Shown: piece by piece, positions 1 to 5,641 of the stretch
Numbering within the stretch: position 1 is the first letter of the stretch
Layout of the letters: every line of letters begins with the position of its first letter
Assembly (NCBI RefSeq): GCF_057098645.1
Contig: NZ_CM169472.1
Length of the DNA: 64,000 nt
Reading direction: 5' to 3' (one strand)
Notes under the pieces: model-generated
The model's database searches: none
Seen by the model: the letters and a program-made list of their open reading frames with translations, nothing else
What the model was told of the DNA's origin: nothing
Made by a program: the position numbers and the translations under genes

Positions 1-250
1 CTTGTTGCAAAAATACGGCCCCACCGCTGGCATTATTGGTCATATCCGAAAAAACCAGCCATTGCCCATCGGCGATACTCCAGACCTGCGTAATGCCTGA
101 AAGGCTTTGCCTGCTGGCGTGACAACTCGCTTTGATATCATATCCCTGGCATAAATCAATGGCCGCCGCGACACCGTTAGCAGAGAAAAGAGATGCAATC
201 ATTGACGGGAGTAGAGATAAATACTCCTTGCGTAGAAAGATAATCCGCAT
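1..250 (-). CDS. yfaL: Autotransporter adhesin YfaL, N-terminal fragment (gene continues beyond window start)
   Basis: Minus-strand translation from ATG (complement of 248-250) reads MRIIFLRKEYLSLLPSMIASLFSANGVAA..., recognised as the YfaL signal-peptide N-terminus; no stop within window. Confidence 0.6.
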   Translation of the reverse strand, partial: MRIIFLRKEYLSLLPSMIASLFSANGVAAAIDLCQGYDIKASCHASRQSLSGITQVWSIADGQWLVFSDMTNNASGGAVFLQQ

Positions 251-783
251 ATTAATCTGACCATTATTTTATATAAGACGGCATATTTAAACGCATTATA
301 CAATATGGGTTATCTTTCTTTTGTAAATTGTCCAACCCGATGCAATAGCTATTTTGTTATTATTTAATGAATAGTATCAGTGCGTCATAATTCAAGTTAA
401 TAACCTTAAGGGATACCAGTTATATTTAAACTAAATTAAAGTAATGAATAATTTTCTTATAATATAAGGTATATTAACAAAATGGCTTCGCATTTAACAA
501 TAACCGAATAGAAAACAACCATTTCGACATCAACAATCGCTTACATTCGCTTATATATTGACCACAACTGATACATCAGATTATGTGATGACTCGTGCTT
601 AGATCAATTTTTGCAATCATTAGCAAAAAGATTAATAAACCATCTATATCAATTTATCCAACCTATTCTGCCGTTCAAGAAATCGCCGAACAGTTATTTT
701 TAACAAATTTTTCTCTTCCCATTGACTTTCCCGGACACCTTGTCTGACCTAAGGTGCGCGAAAGCCACTTTTTCCTTCCTGAG

Positions 784-804
784 TTATCCACAAAGTTATG
801 CACT
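784..804 (+). promoter_or_regulatory. Two adjacent DnaA boxes (TTATCCACA at 784-792, TTATGCACT at 796-804) upstream of nrdA
   Basis: Exact and 8/9 matches to DnaA box consensus TTATNCACA read directly; nrdAB promoter is known to carry DnaA boxes. Confidence 0.6.
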
Positions 805-821
805 TGCAAGAGGGCCATTTT

Positions 822-867
822 CACACTATCTTGCAGTGAATCCCAAACATACCCCCTATATATAGTG
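822..867 (+). promoter_or_regulatory. Two putative NrdR boxes (CACACTATCTTGCAGTG and CCCCTATATATAGTG) about 31 bp apart at the nrdAB core promoter
   Basis: Palindrome-like 16-17 bp motifs with AT core about 80-120 bp upstream of nrdA ATG; spacing of about three helical turns fits NrdR box pairs. Confidence 0.5.
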
Positions 868-945
868 TTCTAAGCAGCTTCCCGTACTACAGGTAGTCTG
901 CACGAAACTATTGCGGAAAGAATTCCAAAAACAGGTACGACATAC

Positions 946-3231
946 ATGAATCAGAATCTGCTGGTGACAAAGCGCGACGGTAGCACAGAGCGCATCAATC
1001 TCGACAAAATCCATCGCGTTCTGGATTGGGCGGCAGAAGGACTGCATAACGTTTCGATTTCCCAGGTCGAGCTGCGCTCCCACATTCAGTTTTATGACGG
1101 TATCAAGACCTCTGACATCCACGAAACTATTATCAAGGCTGCCGCAGACCTGATCTCCCGTGATGCGCCGGATTATCAGTATCTCGCCGCGCGCCTGGCG
1201 ATCTTCCACCTGCGTAAAAAAGCCTACGGCCAGTTTGAGCCGCCTGCGCTGTACGACCACGTGGTGAAAATGGTCGAGATGGGCAAATACGATAATCATC
1301 TGCTGGAAGACTACACGGAAGAAGAGTTCAAGCAGATGGACACGTTTATCGATCACGACCGTGATATGACCTTCTCTTATGCTGCCGTTAAGCAACTGGA
1401 AGGCAAATATCTGGTACAGAACCGCGTGACCGGCGAAATCTACGAAAGCGCCCAGTTCCTTTATATTCTGGTTGCCGCGTGCCTGTTCTCGAACTACCCG
1501 CGTGAAACGCGCCTGCAATATGTGAAGCGTTTTTACGACGCGGTTTCCACATTTAAAATTTCGCTGCCGACGCCAATCATGTCCGGCGTGCGTACCCCGA
1601 CTCGTCAGTTCAGCTCCTGCGTGCTGATCGAGTGCGGCGACAGCCTGGATTCCATCAACGCCACCTCCAGCGCGATTGTGAAATATGTTTCCCAGCGTGC
1701 CGGGATCGGCATCAACGCCGGGCGTATTCGTGCGCTGGGTAGCCCGATTCGCGGTGGCGAAGCGTTCCATACCGGCTGCATTCCGTTCTACAAACATTTC
1801 CAGACTGCGGTGAAATCCTGCTCTCAGGGCGGCGTGCGCGGCGGTGCGGCAACGCTGTTCTACCCGATGTGGCATCTGGAAGTGGAAAGCCTGCTGGTGT
1901 TGAAAAACAACCGTGGTGTGGAAGGCAACCGCGTGCGCCATATGGACTACGGGGTACAGATCAACAAACTGATGTATACCCGCCTGCTGAAAGGTGAAGA
2001 TATCACCCTGTTCAGCCCGTCCGACGTACCGGGGCTGTACGACGCATTCTTCGCCGATCAGGAAGAGTTTGAACGCCTGTATACCAAATATGAGAAAGAC
2101 GACAGCATCCGCAAGCAGCGTGTGAAAGCCGTTGAGCTGTTCTCGCTGATGATGCAGGAACGTGCATCTACCGGTCGTATCTATATTCAGAACGTTGACC
2201 ACTGCAATACCCATAGCCCGTTTGATCCGGCCATCGCGCCAGTGCGTCAGTCTAACCTGTGCCTGGAGATAGCCCTGCCGACCAAACCGCTGAACGACGT
2301 CAACGACGAGAACGGTGAAATCGCGCTGTGTACGCTGTCTGCTTTCAACCTGGGCGCAATTAATAGCCTGGATGAACTGGAAGAGCTGGCAATTCTGGCG
2401 GTTCGTGCACTTGACGCGCTGCTGGATTATCAGGATTACCCGATCCCGGCCGCCAAACGTGGAGCGATGGGTCGTCGTACGCTGGGTATTGGTGTGATCA
2501 ACTTCGCTTACTACCTGGCGAAGCACGGTAAACGTTACTCCGACGGCAGCGCCAACAACCTGACGCATAAAACCTTCGAAGCGATTCAGTATTACCTGCT
2601 GAAAGCGTCTAATGAGCTGGCGAAAGAGCAAGGCGCGTGCCCGTGGTTTAACGAAACCACTTACGCGAAAGGGATCCTGCCGATCGATACCTATAAGAAA
2701 GATCTGGATGCCATCGCTAATGAACCACTGCATTACGACTGGGAAGCACTGCGTGAATCGATCAAAACGCACGGTCTGCGTAACTCCACGCTTTCTGCCC
2801 TGATGCCGTCCGAGACTTCTTCACAGATCTCTAACGCCACTAACGGTATTGAACCGCCGCGCGGTTACGTCAGCATCAAAGCGTCGAAAGACGGTATTCT
2901 GCGCCAGGTGGTGCCGGACTACGAGCATCTGCACGACGCCTATGAGCTGCTGTGGGAAATGCCGGGTAACGATGGCTACCTGCAACTGGTAGGTATCATG
3001 CAGAAATTTATCGATCAGTCGATCTCTGCTAACACCAACTACGATCCGTCACGCTTCCCGTCAGGAAAAGTGCCGATGCAGCAGTTGCTGAAAGACCTGC
3101 TCACCGCCTACAAATTCGGGGTCAAAACGCTGTATTATCAGAACACCCGTGACGGCGCTGAAGACGCGCAGGACGATCTGGTGCCGTCAATCCAGGACGA
3201 TGGCTGCGAAAGCGGCGCATGTAAGATCTGA
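946..3231 (+). CDS. nrdA: Ribonucleoside-diphosphate reductase 1, alpha subunit
   Basis: 761-aa ORF, MNQNLLVTKRDGSTERINLDKIHRVLDWAAEGL...; class Ia RNR large subunit; followed by nrdB and yfaE. Confidence 0.97.
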   Translation: MNQNLLVTKRDGSTERINLDKIHRVLDWAAEGLHNVSISQVELRSHIQFYDGIKTSDIHETIIKAAADLISRDAPDYQYLAARLAIFHLRKKAYGQFEPPALYDHVVKMVEMGKYDNHLLEDYTEEEFKQMDTFIDHDRDMTFSYAAVKQLEGKYLVQNRVTGEIYESAQFLYILVAACLFSNYPRETRLQYVKRFYDAVSTFKISLPTPIMSGVRTPTRQFSSCVLIECGDSLDSINATSSAIVKYVSQRAGIGINAGRIRALGSPIRGGEAFHTGCIPFYKHFQTAVKSCSQGGVRGGAATLFYPMWHLEVESLLVLKNNRGVEGNRVRHMDYGVQINKLMYTRLLKGEDITLFSPSDVPGLYDAFFADQEEFERLYTKYEKDDSIRKQRVKAVELFSLMMQERASTGRIYIQNVDHCNTHSPFDPAIAPVRQSNLCLEIALPTKPLNDVNDENGEIALCTLSAFNLGAINSLDELEELAILAVRALDALLDYQDYPIPAAKRGAMGRRTLGIGVINFAYYLAKHGKRYSDGSANNLTHKTFEAIQYYLLKASNELAKEQGACPWFNETTYAKGILPIDTYKKDLDAIANEPLHYDWEALRESIKTHGLRNSTLSALMPSETSSQISNATNGIEPPRGYVSIKASKDGILRQVVPDYEHLHDAYELLWEMPGNDGYLQLVGIMQKFIDQSISANTNYDPSRFPSGKVPMQQLLKDLLTAYKFGVKTLYYQNTRDGAEDAQDDLVPSIQDDGCESGACKI

Positions 3232-3240
3232 TATTGAGAT

Positions 3241-3530
3241 GCCGGATGCGGCGTAAACGCCTTATCAGGCCTACGGCTCGGTTTGTAGGCCTGATAAGAC
3301 GCGCCAGCGTCGCATCAGGCTCCGGGTGCCGGATGCAGCGTGAACGCCTTATCCGGCCTACGACTCGGATTTGTAGGCCTGATAAGACGCGCCAGCGTCG
3401 CATCAGGCTCCGGGTGCCGGATGCAGCGTGAACGCCTTATCCGGCCTACGACTCGGATTTGTAGGCCTGATAAGACGCGCCAGCGTCGCATCAGGCACAG
3501 GATGCGGCGTAAAATGCCTTATCCGGCATT
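3241..3530. repeat. BIME/REP array: three tandem ~88-bp units of inverted REP palindromes in the nrdA-nrdB intergenic region
   Basis: Units start near 3241, 3327 and 3415; each has GCCGGATGC(A/G)GCGT(A/G)AACGCCTTATCCGGCCTAC followed by GTAGGCCTGATAAGACGCGCCAGCGTCGCATCAGGC. Confidence 0.85.
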
Positions 3531-3552
3531 AAACTCCCAACAGGACACACTC

Positions 3553-4683
3553 ATGGCATATACCACCTTTTCACAGACGAAAAATGATCAGCTCAAAGAA
3601 CCGATGTTCTTTGGTCAGCCGGTCAACGTGGCTCGCTACGATCAGCAAAAATATGACATCTTCGAAAAGCTGATCGAAAAGCAGCTCTCTTTCTTCTGGC
3701 GTCCGGAAGAAGTTGACGTTTCTCGTGACCGTATCGATTACCAGGCGCTGCCTGAACACGAAAAACACATTTTTATCAGCAACCTGAAATACCAGACGTT
3801 GCTCGATTCAATTCAGGGTCGTAGCCCGAACGTGGCACTGCTGCCGCTGATCTCGATCCCGGAACTGGAAACCTGGGTAGAAACCTGGGCGTTCTCAGAA
3901 ACGATTCATTCCCGTTCCTATACTCATATCATTCGTAATATCGTTAACGATCCGTCAGTTGTGTTTGACGATATCGTCACCAACGAGCAGATCCAGAAAC
4001 GTGCGGAAGGGATCTCCAGCTACTACGATGAGCTGATCGAAATGACCAGCTACTGGCACCTGCTGGGCGAAGGCACCCACACTGTTAACGGTAAAACCGT
4101 GACCGTTAGCCTGCGCGAGCTGAAGAAAAAACTGTATCTCTGCCTGATGAGCGTTAACGCGCTGGAAGCGATCCGCTTCTACGTCAGCTTTGCTTGTTCC
4201 TTTGCCTTTGCAGAACGCGAACTGATGGAAGGTAACGCCAAAATTATTCGCCTGATTGCCCGCGACGAAGCCCTGCACCTGACCGGTACTCAGCATATGC
4301 TGAATCTGCTGCGCAGCGGTGCGGATGATCCGGAGATGGCGGAAATTGCCGAAGAATGTAAGCAGGAATGCTATGACCTGTTTGTCCAGGCGGCACAGCA
4401 AGAGAAAGACTGGGCGGATTATCTGTTCCGTGACGGTTCGATGATTGGTCTGAATAAAGACATTCTCTGCCAGTACGTTGAATATATCACCAATATCCGC
4501 ATGCAGGCAGTCGGTTTGGATCTGCCGTTCCAGACGCGCTCCAACCCGATCCCGTGGATCAACACCTGGCTGGTGTCTGATAACGTGCAGGTTGCTCCGC
4601 AGGAAGTGGAAGTCAGTTCTTATCTGGTCGGGCAGATTGACTCGGAAGTGGACACCGACGATTTGAGTAACTTCCAGCTCTGA
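3553..4683 (+). CDS. nrdB: Ribonucleoside-diphosphate reductase 1, beta subunit
   Basis: ATG at 3553 gives [37 protein letters not shown]..., 376 aa; the longer ORF-track call from 3340 reads through the REP array and is not used. Confidence 0.95.
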
Positions 4684-4937
4684 TGGCTAGCGTTACCCTG
4701 CGCATCACTGGCACACAACTGCTGTGCCAGGATGAACACCCTTCCCTTCTGGCGGCGCTGGAATCCCACAATGTGGCGGTTGAGTACCAGTGCCGCGAAG
4801 GTTACTGCGGCTCCTGTCGCACCCGACTGGTCGCAGGCCAGGTGGACTGGATTGCCGAACCGTTAGCTTTTATTCAGCCGGGGGAAATTTTGCCCTGTTG
4901 TTGCCGGGCAAAAGGCGATATTGAAATCGAGTTGTGA
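4683..4937 (+). CDS. yfaE: 2Fe-2S ferredoxin YfaE (supports NrdB cofactor maintenance)
   Basis: 84-aa ORF with CxxxxCxxC...C pattern (CREGYCGSCRTRLV...PCCC); start ATG shares one nucleotide with the nrdB stop (TGATG). Confidence 0.9.
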   Translation: MASVTLRITGTQLLCQDEHPSLLAALESHNVAVEYQCREGYCGSCRTRLVAGQVDWIAEPLAFIQPGEILPCCCRAKGDIEIEL

Positions 4938-4948
4938 TCGGGTACTAG

Positions 4949-4985
4949 CGCCAGATACGACGCTTACGCGTATTATCTGGCCTAC
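4949..4985. repeat. REP-like palindrome between convergent yfaE and inaA
   Basis: GCCAGATACGACGCTTACGCGTATTATCTGGCCTAC: inverted repeat GCCAGATA/TATCTGGC with REP-like tail. Confidence 0.5.
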
Positions 4986-4990
4986 AACGA

Positions 4991-5641
4991 TTACATGGCG
5001 TAGTAATACGCTTTTACCTGCTCCCAGTCCGCTTTGGGGATCGGCTCCAGATATTTTTCCAGCTGGCGGAAGTCATGATTAATCGCTTTATCGCGACGCA
5101 AGCGGCGACGACTTTTCTCCAGATCAAGAAAACCAGCTTCTGCCTTACCTTCTGTTTTCACATAGATATGGCGAACATAACAACAGCCATGCTGACGATT
5201 AATGCTATGCATTTTCTTAAACGCCAGCGCCACTGCTTTCAACATGGCTTGCCGTACTTCGTCAGAATAAGGCGATACTGCATGCTGGGCATACCAGTCA
5301 GCAATGCTGATGAACCCCGCCATATCTTCAGTCACCAGCAACGCGCGCCATTCCCCCTCAATTTTCACCGCTTCACCAAAAACGATCTTCGGCACGATGA
5401 CACCGGCCCGTTCCAGTTCTTTAATTACCGCAACCTCACGGACAATCGTTGGTCGGCCGAAAGGATAACGTACGGAATGAAACAGATGATGCGTCATGCG
5501 CTTTACATATAGCTTTTTGCCGTTGCGCTCGACGCATTGCACCCCGCTCATACCATTACGGCGATAGTTAGGCTCTTCAACCCAGTCGCCCTCTGTTGCC
5601 CACCAGTGATTAAATTCGTCGTGCTTTGCTGAAACTGCCAT
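4991..5641 (-). CDS. inaA: Acid-inducible Kdo/WaaP-family lipopolysaccharide kinase InaA
   Basis: 216-aa ORF MAVSAKHDEFNHWWATEGDWVEEPNYRRNGMSGVQCVERNGKKLYVKRM...; recognised as InaA. Confidence 0.9.
   Translation of the reverse strand: MAVSAKHDEFNHWWATEGDWVEEPNYRRNGMSGVQCVERNGKKLYVKRMTHHLFHSVRYPFGRPTIVREVAVIKELERAGVIVPKIVFGEAVKIEGEWRALLVTEDMAGFISIADWYAQHAVSPYSDEVRQAMLKAVALAFKKMHSINRQHGCCYVRHIYVKTEGKAEAGFLDLEKSRRRLRRDKAINHDFRQLEKYLEPIPKADWEQVKAYYYAM

Follow-up and report, generated by a model that had tools for sequence, protein, structure and literature searches.

The nrdA promoter of Escherichia coli K-12, nrdAp, has been studied by the Fuchs, Beckwith/Sclavi, Torrents, Sjöberg/Logan and Wade laboratories. 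Expression of nrdAB is coupled to the DnaA-ATP/ADP state, for which a nucleotide-switch model is available, Fis and IciA are likewise described as acting on nrd, and the promoter is described as having three DnaA boxes, one of which is specific for ATP-DnaA (PMC8203912). Expression is also coupled to dATP/ATP via NrdR (PMC12176259). The link between RNR expression, replication initiation and dNTP pools to which an earlier note on this DNA appealed is therefore established. Binding of Fis to the nrd promoter is covered in reviews, including PMC8203912. The literature further reports that H-NS bound in the upstream AT-rich DNA modulates nrdAB, and that microarrays failed to reproduce the regulation of nrdAB over the cell cycle, which speaks against the control model given below. 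Other described systems with which the locus can be compared are the NrdR operators of nrdHIEF and nrdDG, the double DnaA boxes of the DnaA regulon, the H-NS-bound promoter islands of the Ozoline laboratory and the 'nrdA-like promoter' of phages P1 and P7.

Composition and conservation of the yfaL-nrdA spacer

The DNA analysed here is a stretch of 64 kb, referred to as the window. In it, yfaL and nrdA diverge from a spacer of 695 bp (251-945), with the yfaL start codon ending at 250 and the nrdA ATG starting at 946, confirming the divergent control region described in the earlier note. The region is 100% identical to O145:H28 chromosomes and orthologous to the K-12 nrdAB regulatory region. Its identity to K-12 is 98% over 800 bp without indels, and the two are colinear with yfaL, ypaB and nrdA as the annotated neighbours. 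Every named site is identical in K-12 and we see no functional difference between the two; the O145 window differs mainly in the hypervariable 251-668. As an nrdAB control region the locus is well studied and already known, and its re-identification adds nothing new. The coordinates of its features are given in Table 1.

The GC content of 251-945 is 33.8%, compared to 51.6% for the whole window. The spacer had been described as ~700 bp of strongly AT-rich DNA, which holds for 251-671 (28% GC) but not for 672-945 (42.7% GC). Conservation is divided in the same way. Only two SNPs separate 669-945 from K-12, one at 815 in the promoter spacer and one at 903, 4 nt 3' of NrdR box 2, and the upstream part of the module is recognisable across Enterobacterales. 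At an identity of at least 99%, the upstream segment was found in only 393 of 5425 E. coli records, compared to 3821 records for 671-945. Between E. coli lineages, E. albertii and Pseudocitrobacter, 251-671 could not be aligned. Our main reading, to which we give a probability of roughly 90%, is that 251-945 is the E. coli yfaL-nrdA intergenic region and that it joins a conserved nrdAB control module to a hypervariable AT-rich segment with a different history and function. The features, their scores, the match to K-12 and the pattern of conservation come from this analysis; that DnaA, NrdR, H-NS, HusR and Fis bind is taken over from published work.

A search of 1-3198 with the Rfam covariance models at E<=1 gave zero matches, the spacer and leader included, and a structured RNA (sRNA or riboswitch) was rejected there on the basis of this permissive threshold. 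Within 1-5000, also at a permissive threshold, the only Rfam matches were REP/naRNA4 elements at 3199-3528 and 4907-4982, which sit between nrdA and nrdB and after yfaE. A terminator scan of 150-1050 detected no terminator-like site. In the 5'-UTR, the junction of a deletion of 914-926 was present in 983 of 5426 genomes (18%).

Table 1. Features of the yfaL-nrdA region, in window coordinates
Feature	Position	Strand	Basis and remarks
yfaL 5' end (AIDA-I family autotransporter adhesin YfaL/EhaC)	1-250	-	Start codon 250-248; RefSeq annotation of a 100%-identical record; translation MRIIFLRKEY...
AT-rich (28% GC) hypervariable segment	251-671		Bulk of the published yfaL/ypaB 'promoter island'; H-NS-bound per PMC3661553
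Conserved nrdA control module and 5'-UTR	672-945	+	Alignment of E. coli, E. albertii and Pseudocitrobacter; sharp conservation boundary at ~672
Fis-like 15-mer GTTCAAGAAATCGCC	673-687		G at position 1, C at position 15, A/T-rich centre; read from sequence
Annotated ORF ypaB, 47 aa	675-818	-	RefSeq and K-12 annotation; overlaps inverted repeat, HusR boxes, DnaA boxes and -35
AT tract CAGTTATTTTTAACAAATTTTTCTC	691-715		Between Fis-like site and inverted repeat; read from sequence
Imperfect 45-bp inverted repeat TGACTTTCCCGGACACCTT-(9)-AAGGTGCGCGAAAGCCA	723-767		Arm alignment and folding
HusR (YnfL) box CCGGACACCTTGTCTG	731-746		Inside inverted repeat; Table 1 of PMC12844172
Second HusR box CACTTTTTCCTTCCTG	766-781		PMC12844172
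Double DnaA box: TTATCCACA (784-792), aag, TTATGCACT (796-804)	784-804	+	3-bp spacing; abuts -35
nrdAp -35 hexamer TTGCAA	804-809	+	17 bp from TATCTT; CACTTGCAA conserved in 27/27 type-A loci
Weak DnaA-like 9-mer ATTTTCACA	817-825	+	In the -35/-10 spacer; 3 mismatches to TTATCCACA, 1 to TTWTNCACA
NrdR box 0 TCACACTATCTTGCAG	821-836		Contains -10; ends at presumed TSS ~836; 7.8 bits, rank 12
nrdAp -10 hexamer TATCTT	827-832	+	Within box 0; conserved in type-A loci
NrdR box 1 CCCCTATATATAGTGT	853-868		17.1 bits, rank 1; conserved in all 79 loci
NrdR box 2 GTACTACAGGTAGTCT	884-899		11.4 bits, rank 2; central AG; 15-bp linker from box 1
13 bp of 5'-UTR (CGGAAAGAATTCC)	914-926	+	Deleted in a common E. 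coli allele; alignment
Shine-Dalgarno region ACAGGTA (931-937) and nrdA start codon (946-948)	931-948	+	ACAGGTA conserved in nearly all 79 loci
nrdA ORF	946-3231	+	ORF list

The promoter, its upstream elements and the DnaA boxes

With 8 of 12 positions matching, nrdAp falls below the threshold of the consensus scan and was identified by conservation instead; its weak score fits an activator-dependent promoter. Transcription probably starts near 836, at the site which we take to be the one placed 110 nt upstream of the ATG by Tuggle & Fuchs in 1986 and in RegulonDB. Relative to this presumed start, the Fis-like site (centre 680) lies at -156, and Augustin et al. (1994) reportedly placed the centre of a Fis site at that position. 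The coordinates given here are a probable assignment from the sequence; its AAGAAATC-GC is conserved across Enterobacterales. The adjoining AT tract, the T-tract of which is conserved in both promoter layouts described below, may correspond to the upstream activating or IciA-binding region of reviews such as PMC8203912. The two arms of the inverted repeat match at 15 of 17 aligned positions, a single 2-nt gap being allowed for, and the DNA fold has an energy of -7.2 kcal/mol (z = -2.46). The automatic repeat search missed this element because its arms differ by a 2-nt indel, and it was spotted by eye. It appears to be the published 45-bp inverted repeat.

The two adjacent DnaA boxes that had been noted at 784-804 were recovered by the motif scan at exactly those coordinates. 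The upstream box has 0 mismatches, the downstream box has 2 mismatches to TTATCCACA and 1 to TTATNCACA, and the two copies form a direct repeat (repeat D2). Single DnaA boxes are not enriched in the window (4 compared to 5.3 expected in one scan and 10 compared to 12 expected in another), and it is only their paired arrangement that carries information. Within the 64 kb, the pair with 3-bp spacing occurs just once (1 compared to 0.02 expected), and only 2 of 100 shuffles contained any match. In K-12, the identical 23-mer gTTATCCACAaagTTATGCACTt is bound by DnaA, with a ChIP-seq peak at nrdA that is 14-fold over the control, and double boxes of the DnaA regulon follow a 2-3-bp spacing rule (PMC11317965). 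Like those of polA, purH, nrdD, DARS1/2, datA and mioC, the nrdA pair consists of direct 9-mers 3 bp apart, one of which is a perfect TTATCCACA. In nrdA, however, the consensus box is upstream and the weaker box downstream, whereas most of the listed sites have the reverse order (PMC11317965). The 9-mer at 817-825 is a candidate for the ATP-DnaA-specific third site.

In the mechanism that we propose, the weak sigma-70 promoter (TTGCAA, 17 bp, TATCTT, start near 836) would depend on its upstream elements, namely the Fis-like site, the AT tract, the 45-bp inverted repeat with its HusR site, and the double DnaA box. DnaA bound at the double box would tune promoter strength, with ADP-DnaA or low ATP-DnaA being stimulatory. 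High ATP-DnaA would spread to the weaker site in the promoter spacer and exclude RNA polymerase.

Two promoter layouts in Enterobacterales

We compared 79 Enterobacterales loci by ungapped anchoring on the invariant NrdR box 1, which allowed 77 of them to be classified. Aligning all 79 upstream regions globally with MAFFT proved misleading because the two layouts are not colinear, and the box 1 anchoring was used instead. Type A loci (n=27, the window counted) have a consensus DnaA box upstream of the TTGCAA/TATCTT promoter and are found in Escherichia, Pseudocitrobacter, Yersinia, Serratia, Rahnella, Dickeya, Edwardsiella, Hafnia and Budvicia. In type B loci (n=50), the promoter is TTGTAC/TAGAAT and lies 12 bp further upstream. 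This layout is that of Citrobacter, Klebsiella, Enterobacter, Kosakonia, Kluyvera, Pantoea, Erwinia and Pectobacterium, and by inference also of Salmonella. Box 0 of type B is at the transcription start and matches the NrdR motif better than box 0 of type A. In the type B leader, a 3-bp-spaced double DnaA box (TTATCCACAgagTTAGTCACA) abuts NrdR box 1 downstream, and a third, inverted box follows. Most Enterobacteriaceae have their double DnaA box on this downstream side of the NrdR operator, whereas that of E. coli is upstream of the -35.

In 75 of the 77 classified loci (27/27 of type A and 48/50 of type B), box 0 precedes box 1 by exactly 32 bp. Complete palindromes at box 2 are limited to the Escherichia clade and a few others; elsewhere an (A)CACTA half-site is present at an offset of +31 to +33. 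The Escherichia clade lacks 10 bp that are found in the other type A species, which results in the 3-bp-spaced double box, and it also has the full box 2. The upstream DNA of Pseudocitrobacter, which has an E. coli-like promoter, gave 80.9% identity, compared to 66.4% at nrdA third codon positions; this is compatible with constraint, and recent transfer is not claimed.

These data provide a comparative framework, in which a conserved module begins with the Fis-like site at 673 and two promoter layouts extend across the order. We suggest tentatively, at somewhat below even odds, that the E. coli nrdA layout is atypical of its own family, including the readings given here for the leader DnaA boxes and for a shift of the NrdR pair. 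Should the layouts hold at the level of function, DnaA would serve most Enterobacteriaceae as a roadblock in the leader, or as a partner or competitor of NrdR, and the E. coli lineage would have moved its functional NrdR pair from boxes 0+1 to boxes 1+2. Such a shift, if true, would bring the genetics of Salmonella into line with the binding data from E. coli. Conclusions from K-12 on DnaA acting upstream of the -35 should be extended with caution to Salmonella, Klebsiella and Enterobacter, a point of some weight since NrdR is under study as a target for antibacterials. A literature search for an earlier comparison of DnaA-box positions at enterobacterial nrdA returned nothing relevant.

The NrdR operator

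To rank NrdR sites, a matrix was derived from four independent boxes, those of E. coli nrdHIEF and nrdDG, and applied to 63,985 window positions. Two NrdR-like palindromes had previously been described near nrdA. Their best registers, 821-836 and 853-868, are within 1-2 nt of that description and 32 bp apart, and to this extent it stands; a third phased box at 884-899 had been missed. Box 1 was the top-ranked site of the window, and box 2 the second. Box 0 was not significant alone, as the best single score in the shuffles averages 13.3. When scored as pairs, 853+884 (spacing 31) reached 28.6 and 821+853 (spacing 32) reached 24.9, compared to a maximum of 19.8 in 100 shuffles; these start-to-start spacings of 31 and 32 bp correspond to linkers of 15-16 bp. 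Boxes 1 and 2 are thus two 16-bp palindromes that match the NrdR motif, and box 0 is marginal.

The box 1+2 pair shares with the nrdHIEF and nrdDG operators a 15-bp linker and a comparable affinity of 113-160 nM with ATP-dATP (PMC12176259), and its boxes take the first and second places with the matrix derived from those operators. The nrdA operator differs from them in having an extra phased box 0 over the -10 and in its own position, which is within the transcribed leader and not over the promoter.

Which two boxes form the operator is addressed by binding data. The classical reading is that NrdR binds boxes 0 and 1, with their 16-bp linker, and occludes the -10. The earlier note had proposed this pair, the pair score is above that of every shuffle, and box 0 keeps its place at exactly -32 in nearly all of the classified loci. 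Mutation of either homologous box raises nrdAB expression in Salmonella according to the literature, and a 2025 preprint treats the classical pairs as operators, with genome-wide FIMO recovering pairs at 31-32 bp. However, E. coli NrdR bound an oligonucleotide with boxes 1 and 2 with a KD of 113 nM (ATP-dATP) or 96 nM (ADP-dATP), compared to >6000 nM for an oligonucleotide with boxes 0 and 1. In earlier EMSA, mutation of box 0 was neutral while binding was lost when box 1 was mutated, and box 0 is assigned to the -10 region, with boxes 1 and 2 falling within the transcribed leader (PMC12176259). The boxes in the window are identical to the oligonucleotides tested, with SNP 903 falling in the 5-nt flank of the box 1+2 oligonucleotide. 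Moreover, the score of box 0 alone is within chance, and its conservation is confounded with that of the -10 element CACTATCTTG in E. coli-type promoters. We consider the classical pair unlikely to be the E. coli operator. The functional NrdR pair is box 1 (853-868) and box 2 (884-899), as the published binding data indicate and the matrix ranking agrees. Box 0 may still have a role in vivo, for example in higher-order NrdR assemblies, given its conservation at -32 and the derepression in Salmonella, and oligonucleotide binding alone does not argue against such a role. When the ratio of dATP to ATP is high, an NrdR tetramer carrying both ATP and dATP would bind boxes 1 and 2 in the initially transcribed leader and repress transcription, with box 0 over the -10 being at most auxiliary in E. 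coli.

The ypaB ORF and the AT-rich segment

Two further readings concern the DNA upstream of the promoter. It is very unlikely that ypaB, divergent from nrdA, truly codes for a protein and that the conservation of 675-818 is partly coding, even though the ORF is annotated in both RefSeq and K-12 and a HusR-dependent ypaB RNA was detected by RT-qPCR in stationary phase (PMC12844172). The relatives do not show a reading frame preserved under purifying selection. The E. albertii frame has a premature in-frame stop, and in Pseudocitrobacter 15 of 47 residues differ, with many non-synonymous changes despite conserved DNA sites. The ORF is composed of known regulatory sites, and a CRISPRi study attributed the apparent essentiality of ypaB to the nrdA promoter contained in it, which accounts for the phenotype. 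We conclude that ypaB is probably an annotation artefact over regulatory DNA. Equally improbable, in our view, is that the ~420 bp of 251-671 form an extended activating region of nrdA, with extra Fis or IciA sites or curved DNA, rather than silenced DNA associated with yfaL. Fis and IciA are reported activators of nrd for which AT-rich DNA is the usual substrate, and H-NS bound at 251-671 does modulate nrdAB. Against this, the segment is unconserved even within E. coli or in E. albertii, whereas conservation begins at 672. In species that lack yfaL, the conserved module is retained from the Fis-like site on, with unrelated DNA further upstream. The segment is also classed among promoter islands of foreign genes.

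The upstream ~500 bp, to which no function had been assigned, in fact belong to such an island. The yfaL/ypaB island is listed as 2342143_534, one of 78 published promoter islands; all datasets compared show it bound by H-NS, it is associated with genes acquired horizontally, and three foreign-gene predictors flag it (PMC3661553). Conversion of the published coordinates places it at ~202-736 in the window. The nrdA-proximal part of the same stretch contains the HusR boxes together with the 45-bp inverted repeat, targets of Fis and IciA, and ypaB as annotated. The consensus scan of 150-1050 detected 8 sigma-70-like matches, compared to 3.5±1.8 expected, and all 8 were at 263-607; the yfaL promoter or promoters are presumably within 251-671. 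Only 4 of 80 related loci have yfaL upstream of nrdA. We take 251-671 to be xenogeneic AT-rich DNA because of its low GC content with an excess of promoter-like sites, its H-NS listing, its hypervariability and this sporadic presence of yfaL. It resembles other H-NS-bound promoter islands in being AT-rich, dense in promoter-like sites and bound by H-NS in all datasets, but it is not entirely embedded in foreign DNA, as it borders on a core operon that is essential and highly expressed. In our model, the segment would belong to the yfaL side as an H-NS-coated promoter island typical of horizontally acquired DNA, and H-NS on it would keep yfaL silent and also lower nrdAB expression. The annotation is corrected in that the NrdR pair becomes 853-868 and 884-899, the upstream AT-rich DNA becomes a yfaL-tied, H-NS-bound promoter island and ypaB is probably an artefact.

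A partial copy of the control module in phages

Part of the module is also found in phages. Window positions 693-822 are 95.4% identical in P7 and related phages, and 708-822 are 82.6% identical in P1. The matched 693-822 covers the inverted repeat, the HusR boxes, the double DnaA box and the -35, and GenBank M95666 annotates the phage copy as an 'nrdA-like promoter' with a dnaA box. The phage copy stops before the -10 and the NrdR boxes, and it is antisense to annotated upf/pmg genes.

The yfaL-nrdA spacer joins a known control region to a promoter island

In database comparisons, bases 1-1200 of the window matched E. coli O145:H28 chromosomes at 100% identity, and the stretch has matches in 5425 of the 5426 E. 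coli genomes that are complete. K-12 MG1655 is colinear with the region, with zero indels (the NC_000913.3 position minus 2,343,919 gives the window position), and within 669-945 it differs only by SNPs at 815, in the promoter spacer, and at 903, 4 nt 3' of NrdR box 2. Experiments performed in K-12 therefore transfer directly to this DNA. The spacer is 695 bp long, and its GC content is 28% over 251-671 and 42.7% over 672-945, compared to 51.6% for the window. A search of the spacer and leader against Rfam returned zero matches. The region combines the nrdAB control region, which was already known, with a promoter island associated with yfaL and silenced by H-NS. The earlier note's observation of an AT-rich interval with DnaA and NrdR boxes near nrdA was confirmed, while its interpretation was supported only in part.

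An alignment was made of the window, a second E. coli lineage, E. albertii and Pseudocitrobacter. Conservation breaks sharply at about 672: 672-945 aligns almost base for base, whereas 251-671 is barely alignable. Among E. coli records, 3821 are at least 99% identical over 671-945 compared to only 393 over 251-670, and of 80 related loci only 4 have yfaL upstream of nrdA. The AT-rich part therefore goes with yfaL and not with nrdA. The upstream ~500 bp had been described as having no assigned function, which does not hold, as a published 534-bp yfaL/ypaB promoter island (PMC3661553) covers about 202-736 when converted from U00096.2 coordinates. H-NS binds the island in every dataset compared, and three foreign-gene predictors flag it (PMC3661553). 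All eight sigma-70-like sites in the scanned 150-1050 fell at 263-607 (3.5±1.8 expected), consistent with the island listing. H-NS is a reported nrdAB repressor. YfaL itself is highly divergent: over its N-terminal 600 residues, the protein of this strain is only ~74% identical to that of another E. coli lineage or of E. albertii; the divergence was seen in window 1-250 and in the upstream halves of four related loci (L003, L004, L009 and L024).

Features of the yfaL-nrdA region (window coordinates; NrdR scores and ranks from the 64-kb matrix scan)
Feature	Position	Strand	Sequence or remark
yfaL	ends at 250	-	AIDA-I family autotransporter adhesin (RefSeq annotation)
Fis-like site	673-687		GTTCAAGAAATCGCC; fits Fis core pattern; first element of conserved module
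ypaB	675-818	-	47-codon ORF (RefSeq annotation)
AT tract	691-715		next after Fis-like site
Imperfect 45-bp inverted repeat	723-767		arms match at 15/17 positions, one 2-nt gap
HusR (YnfL) box	731-746		inside inverted repeat (PMC12844172)
Second HusR (YnfL) box	766-781		(PMC12844172)
DnaA box, upstream	784-792		TTATCCACA
DnaA box, downstream	796-804		TTATGCACT
nrdAp -35	804-809		CACTTGCAA
NrdR box 0	821-836		7.8 bits, rank 12; first palindrome of the earlier note
nrdAp -10	827-832		CACTATCTTG
NrdR box 1	853-868		17.1 bits, rank 1
NrdR box 2	884-899		11.4 bits, rank 2; overlooked in the earlier note
nrdA	from 946		RefSeq annotation

The nrdA promoter and its NrdR and DnaA sites

The whole 64 kb was scanned with an NrdR matrix built, independently of nrdAB, from four nrdHIEF and nrdDG boxes. 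As phased pairs, boxes 1 and 2 scored 28.6 bits (spacing 31) and boxes 0 and 1 scored 24.9 bits (spacing 32), both exceeding the maximum of 19.8 bits reached in 100 shuffles. In a 2025 study, the upstream box of the classical pair was given the name 'box 0' and assigned to the -10 region, and a new 'box 2' was identified (PMC12176259). In that study, NrdR bound boxes 1 and 2 with a KD of 113 nM (ATP-dATP) or 96 nM (ADP-dATP), compared to >6000 nM for boxes 0 and 1; in an earlier EMSA cited there, mutation of box 0 was neutral and mutation of box 1 was fatal for NrdR binding (PMC12176259). Given KDs of ~100 nM versus >6000 nM, the pairing of boxes 0 and 1 in the earlier note is therefore historical and not the currently supported one: its box 1 stands as the top-ranked site, and its box 0 ranks 12th. 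Geometrically, repression acts from the early part of the transcribed leader (about +17 to +63, taking the start to be near 836) and not from the -10. We take the mapped nrdA start (Tuggle & Fuchs 1986, RegulonDB) to be 110 nt upstream of the ATG, at 836. A consensus promoter scan of 150-1050 did not list nrdAp, whose -35 and -10 are 17 bp apart and nearly invariant in the 27 loci with the E. coli layout.

The two adjacent DnaA boxes (784-804) were found exactly where they had been placed from sequence. Single DnaA boxes were not commoner in the window than in shuffles; the pair with 3-bp spacing was unique in the window, with 0.02 expected by chance. A K-12 DnaA ChIP-seq list includes nrdA, with the identical double box, and two boxes 2-3 bp apart are generally required by DnaA (PMC11317965). 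According to a review, nrdAB has three DnaA sites, one of them ATP-DnaA-specific, is activated by ADP-DnaA or low ATP-DnaA and repressed by high ATP-DnaA, and is further regulated by Fis and IciA (PMC8203912).

Two nrdA promoter layouts in Enterobacterales

We collected 80 Enterobacterales nrdA loci, of which 78 had enough upstream sequence, and analysed 79 sequences including the window. Since NrdR box 1 was present in all 79, the loci were anchored on it without gaps and compared over about 130 bp on each side (window equivalent 740-945). This revealed two non-colinear layouts, type A (n=27, window included) and type B (n=50), with a patchy distribution relative to family; two sequences were unclassified.

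The two nrdA promoter layouts
	Type A	Type B
Members	Escherichia, Pseudocitrobacter, Yersinia, Serratia, Rahnella, Rouxiella, Dickeya, Brenneria, Edwardsiella, Hafnia, Budvicia	Citrobacter, Klebsiella, Enterobacter, Kosakonia, Kluyvera, Pantoea, Erwinia, Tatumella, Pectobacterium
Core promoter	TTGCAA / TATCTT	TTGTAC / TAGAAT, 12 bp further upstream
DnaA	consensus box upstream of -35	3-bp-spaced double box TTATCCACAgagTTAGTCACA abutting box 1 downstream, then inverted TGTGGATAA
Box 0	overlaps -10	better match (ACTCACCATATAGCGT), at start site
Box 0 exactly 32 bp upstream of box 1	27/27	48/50

Only in the Escherichia clade and a few others does box 2 form a complete palindrome; the remaining loci keep just an (A)CACTA half-site at +31 to +33. 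The 10 bp between the DnaA 9-mers of other type A species are missing in the Escherichia clade, and their loss accounts for its 3-bp spacing. Mutation of either classical NrdR box in Salmonella relieves nrdAB repression, and there the first box shares a few nucleotides with the -10 (PMC2892513); these data fit the type B layout. The functional NrdR pair may have shifted from boxes 0 and 1 to boxes 1 and 2 in the E. coli lineage, which, if true, would reconcile the Salmonella and E. coli data sets. A prior description was not found in the limited literature searched, and the two-layout comparison is the sole part of this analysis that may be new. In Enterobacteriaceae bacterium RIT691, a 54%-identical yfaL lies upstream of a type B nrdA promoter.

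Elements of the conserved module that precede the DnaA boxes

The Fis-like site is centred 156 bp before position 836, presumably in agreement with the Fis footprint at nrd (Augustin et al. 1994). The 45-bp inverted repeat has a fold z of -2.46, and a motif series of AAGAAATC-GC, T-tract and TTATTGACA is recognisable order-wide. The HusR boxes were reported in 2026 in a study in which the repeat goes unmentioned (PMC12844172); HusR could be the factor acting at it. Older work tied the repeat to nrd cell-cycle regulation. In Serratia (L047-L051), ~220 bp upstream of nrdA, the site that corresponds to the E. coli repeat holds a near-perfect palindrome, TGACAAGCTTGTCA, which adjoins the conserved TTATTGACA motif.

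The ypaB ORF is composed entirely of nrdA regulatory sites. In E. albertii it is cut short by an in-frame stop, and in Pseudocitrobacter it carries many non-synonymous changes, with poor protein conservation. On these grounds ypaB is a doubtful gene, probably an annotation artefact. In a CRISPRi screen, its apparent essentiality was explained by the nrdA promoter inside the ORF; RNA from the ypaB strand has been reported (PMC12844172).

Phage copies and leader variation

The segment 693-822 recurs in P7-like phages (P7, SJ46) with 95.4% identity, and 708-822 in P1 with 82.6%. Such copies carry the inverted repeat, HusR boxes, double DnaA box and -35, and lie at 3001-3115, 1501-1615 and 1501-1629 of three records of P1/P7-type phages and phage-plasmids (L084, L085 and L087, respectively); related copies gave >300 plasmid matches among E. 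coli assemblies. GenBank M95666 already labels the P1 copy an 'nrdA-like promoter' and marks a dnaA box in it, and the phage copy is oriented antisense to the annotated upf/pmg genes.

In the nrdA 5'-UTR, a 13-bp deletion of 914-926 (CGGAAAGAATTCC), downstream of NrdR box 2 and ahead of the Shine-Dalgarno, is carried by 983 of the 5426 complete E. coli genomes. FDAARGOS_1265 (L083, around 1031), the one deletion genome examined, also has a box 2 that starts with TC, not GT. Further downstream, REP-type elements lie in tandem between nrdA and nrdB (3199-3528), with one more after yfaE (4907-4982); their Rfam match is naRNA4 (RF02564), and two of the copies exceed the gathering threshold (76.4 bits).
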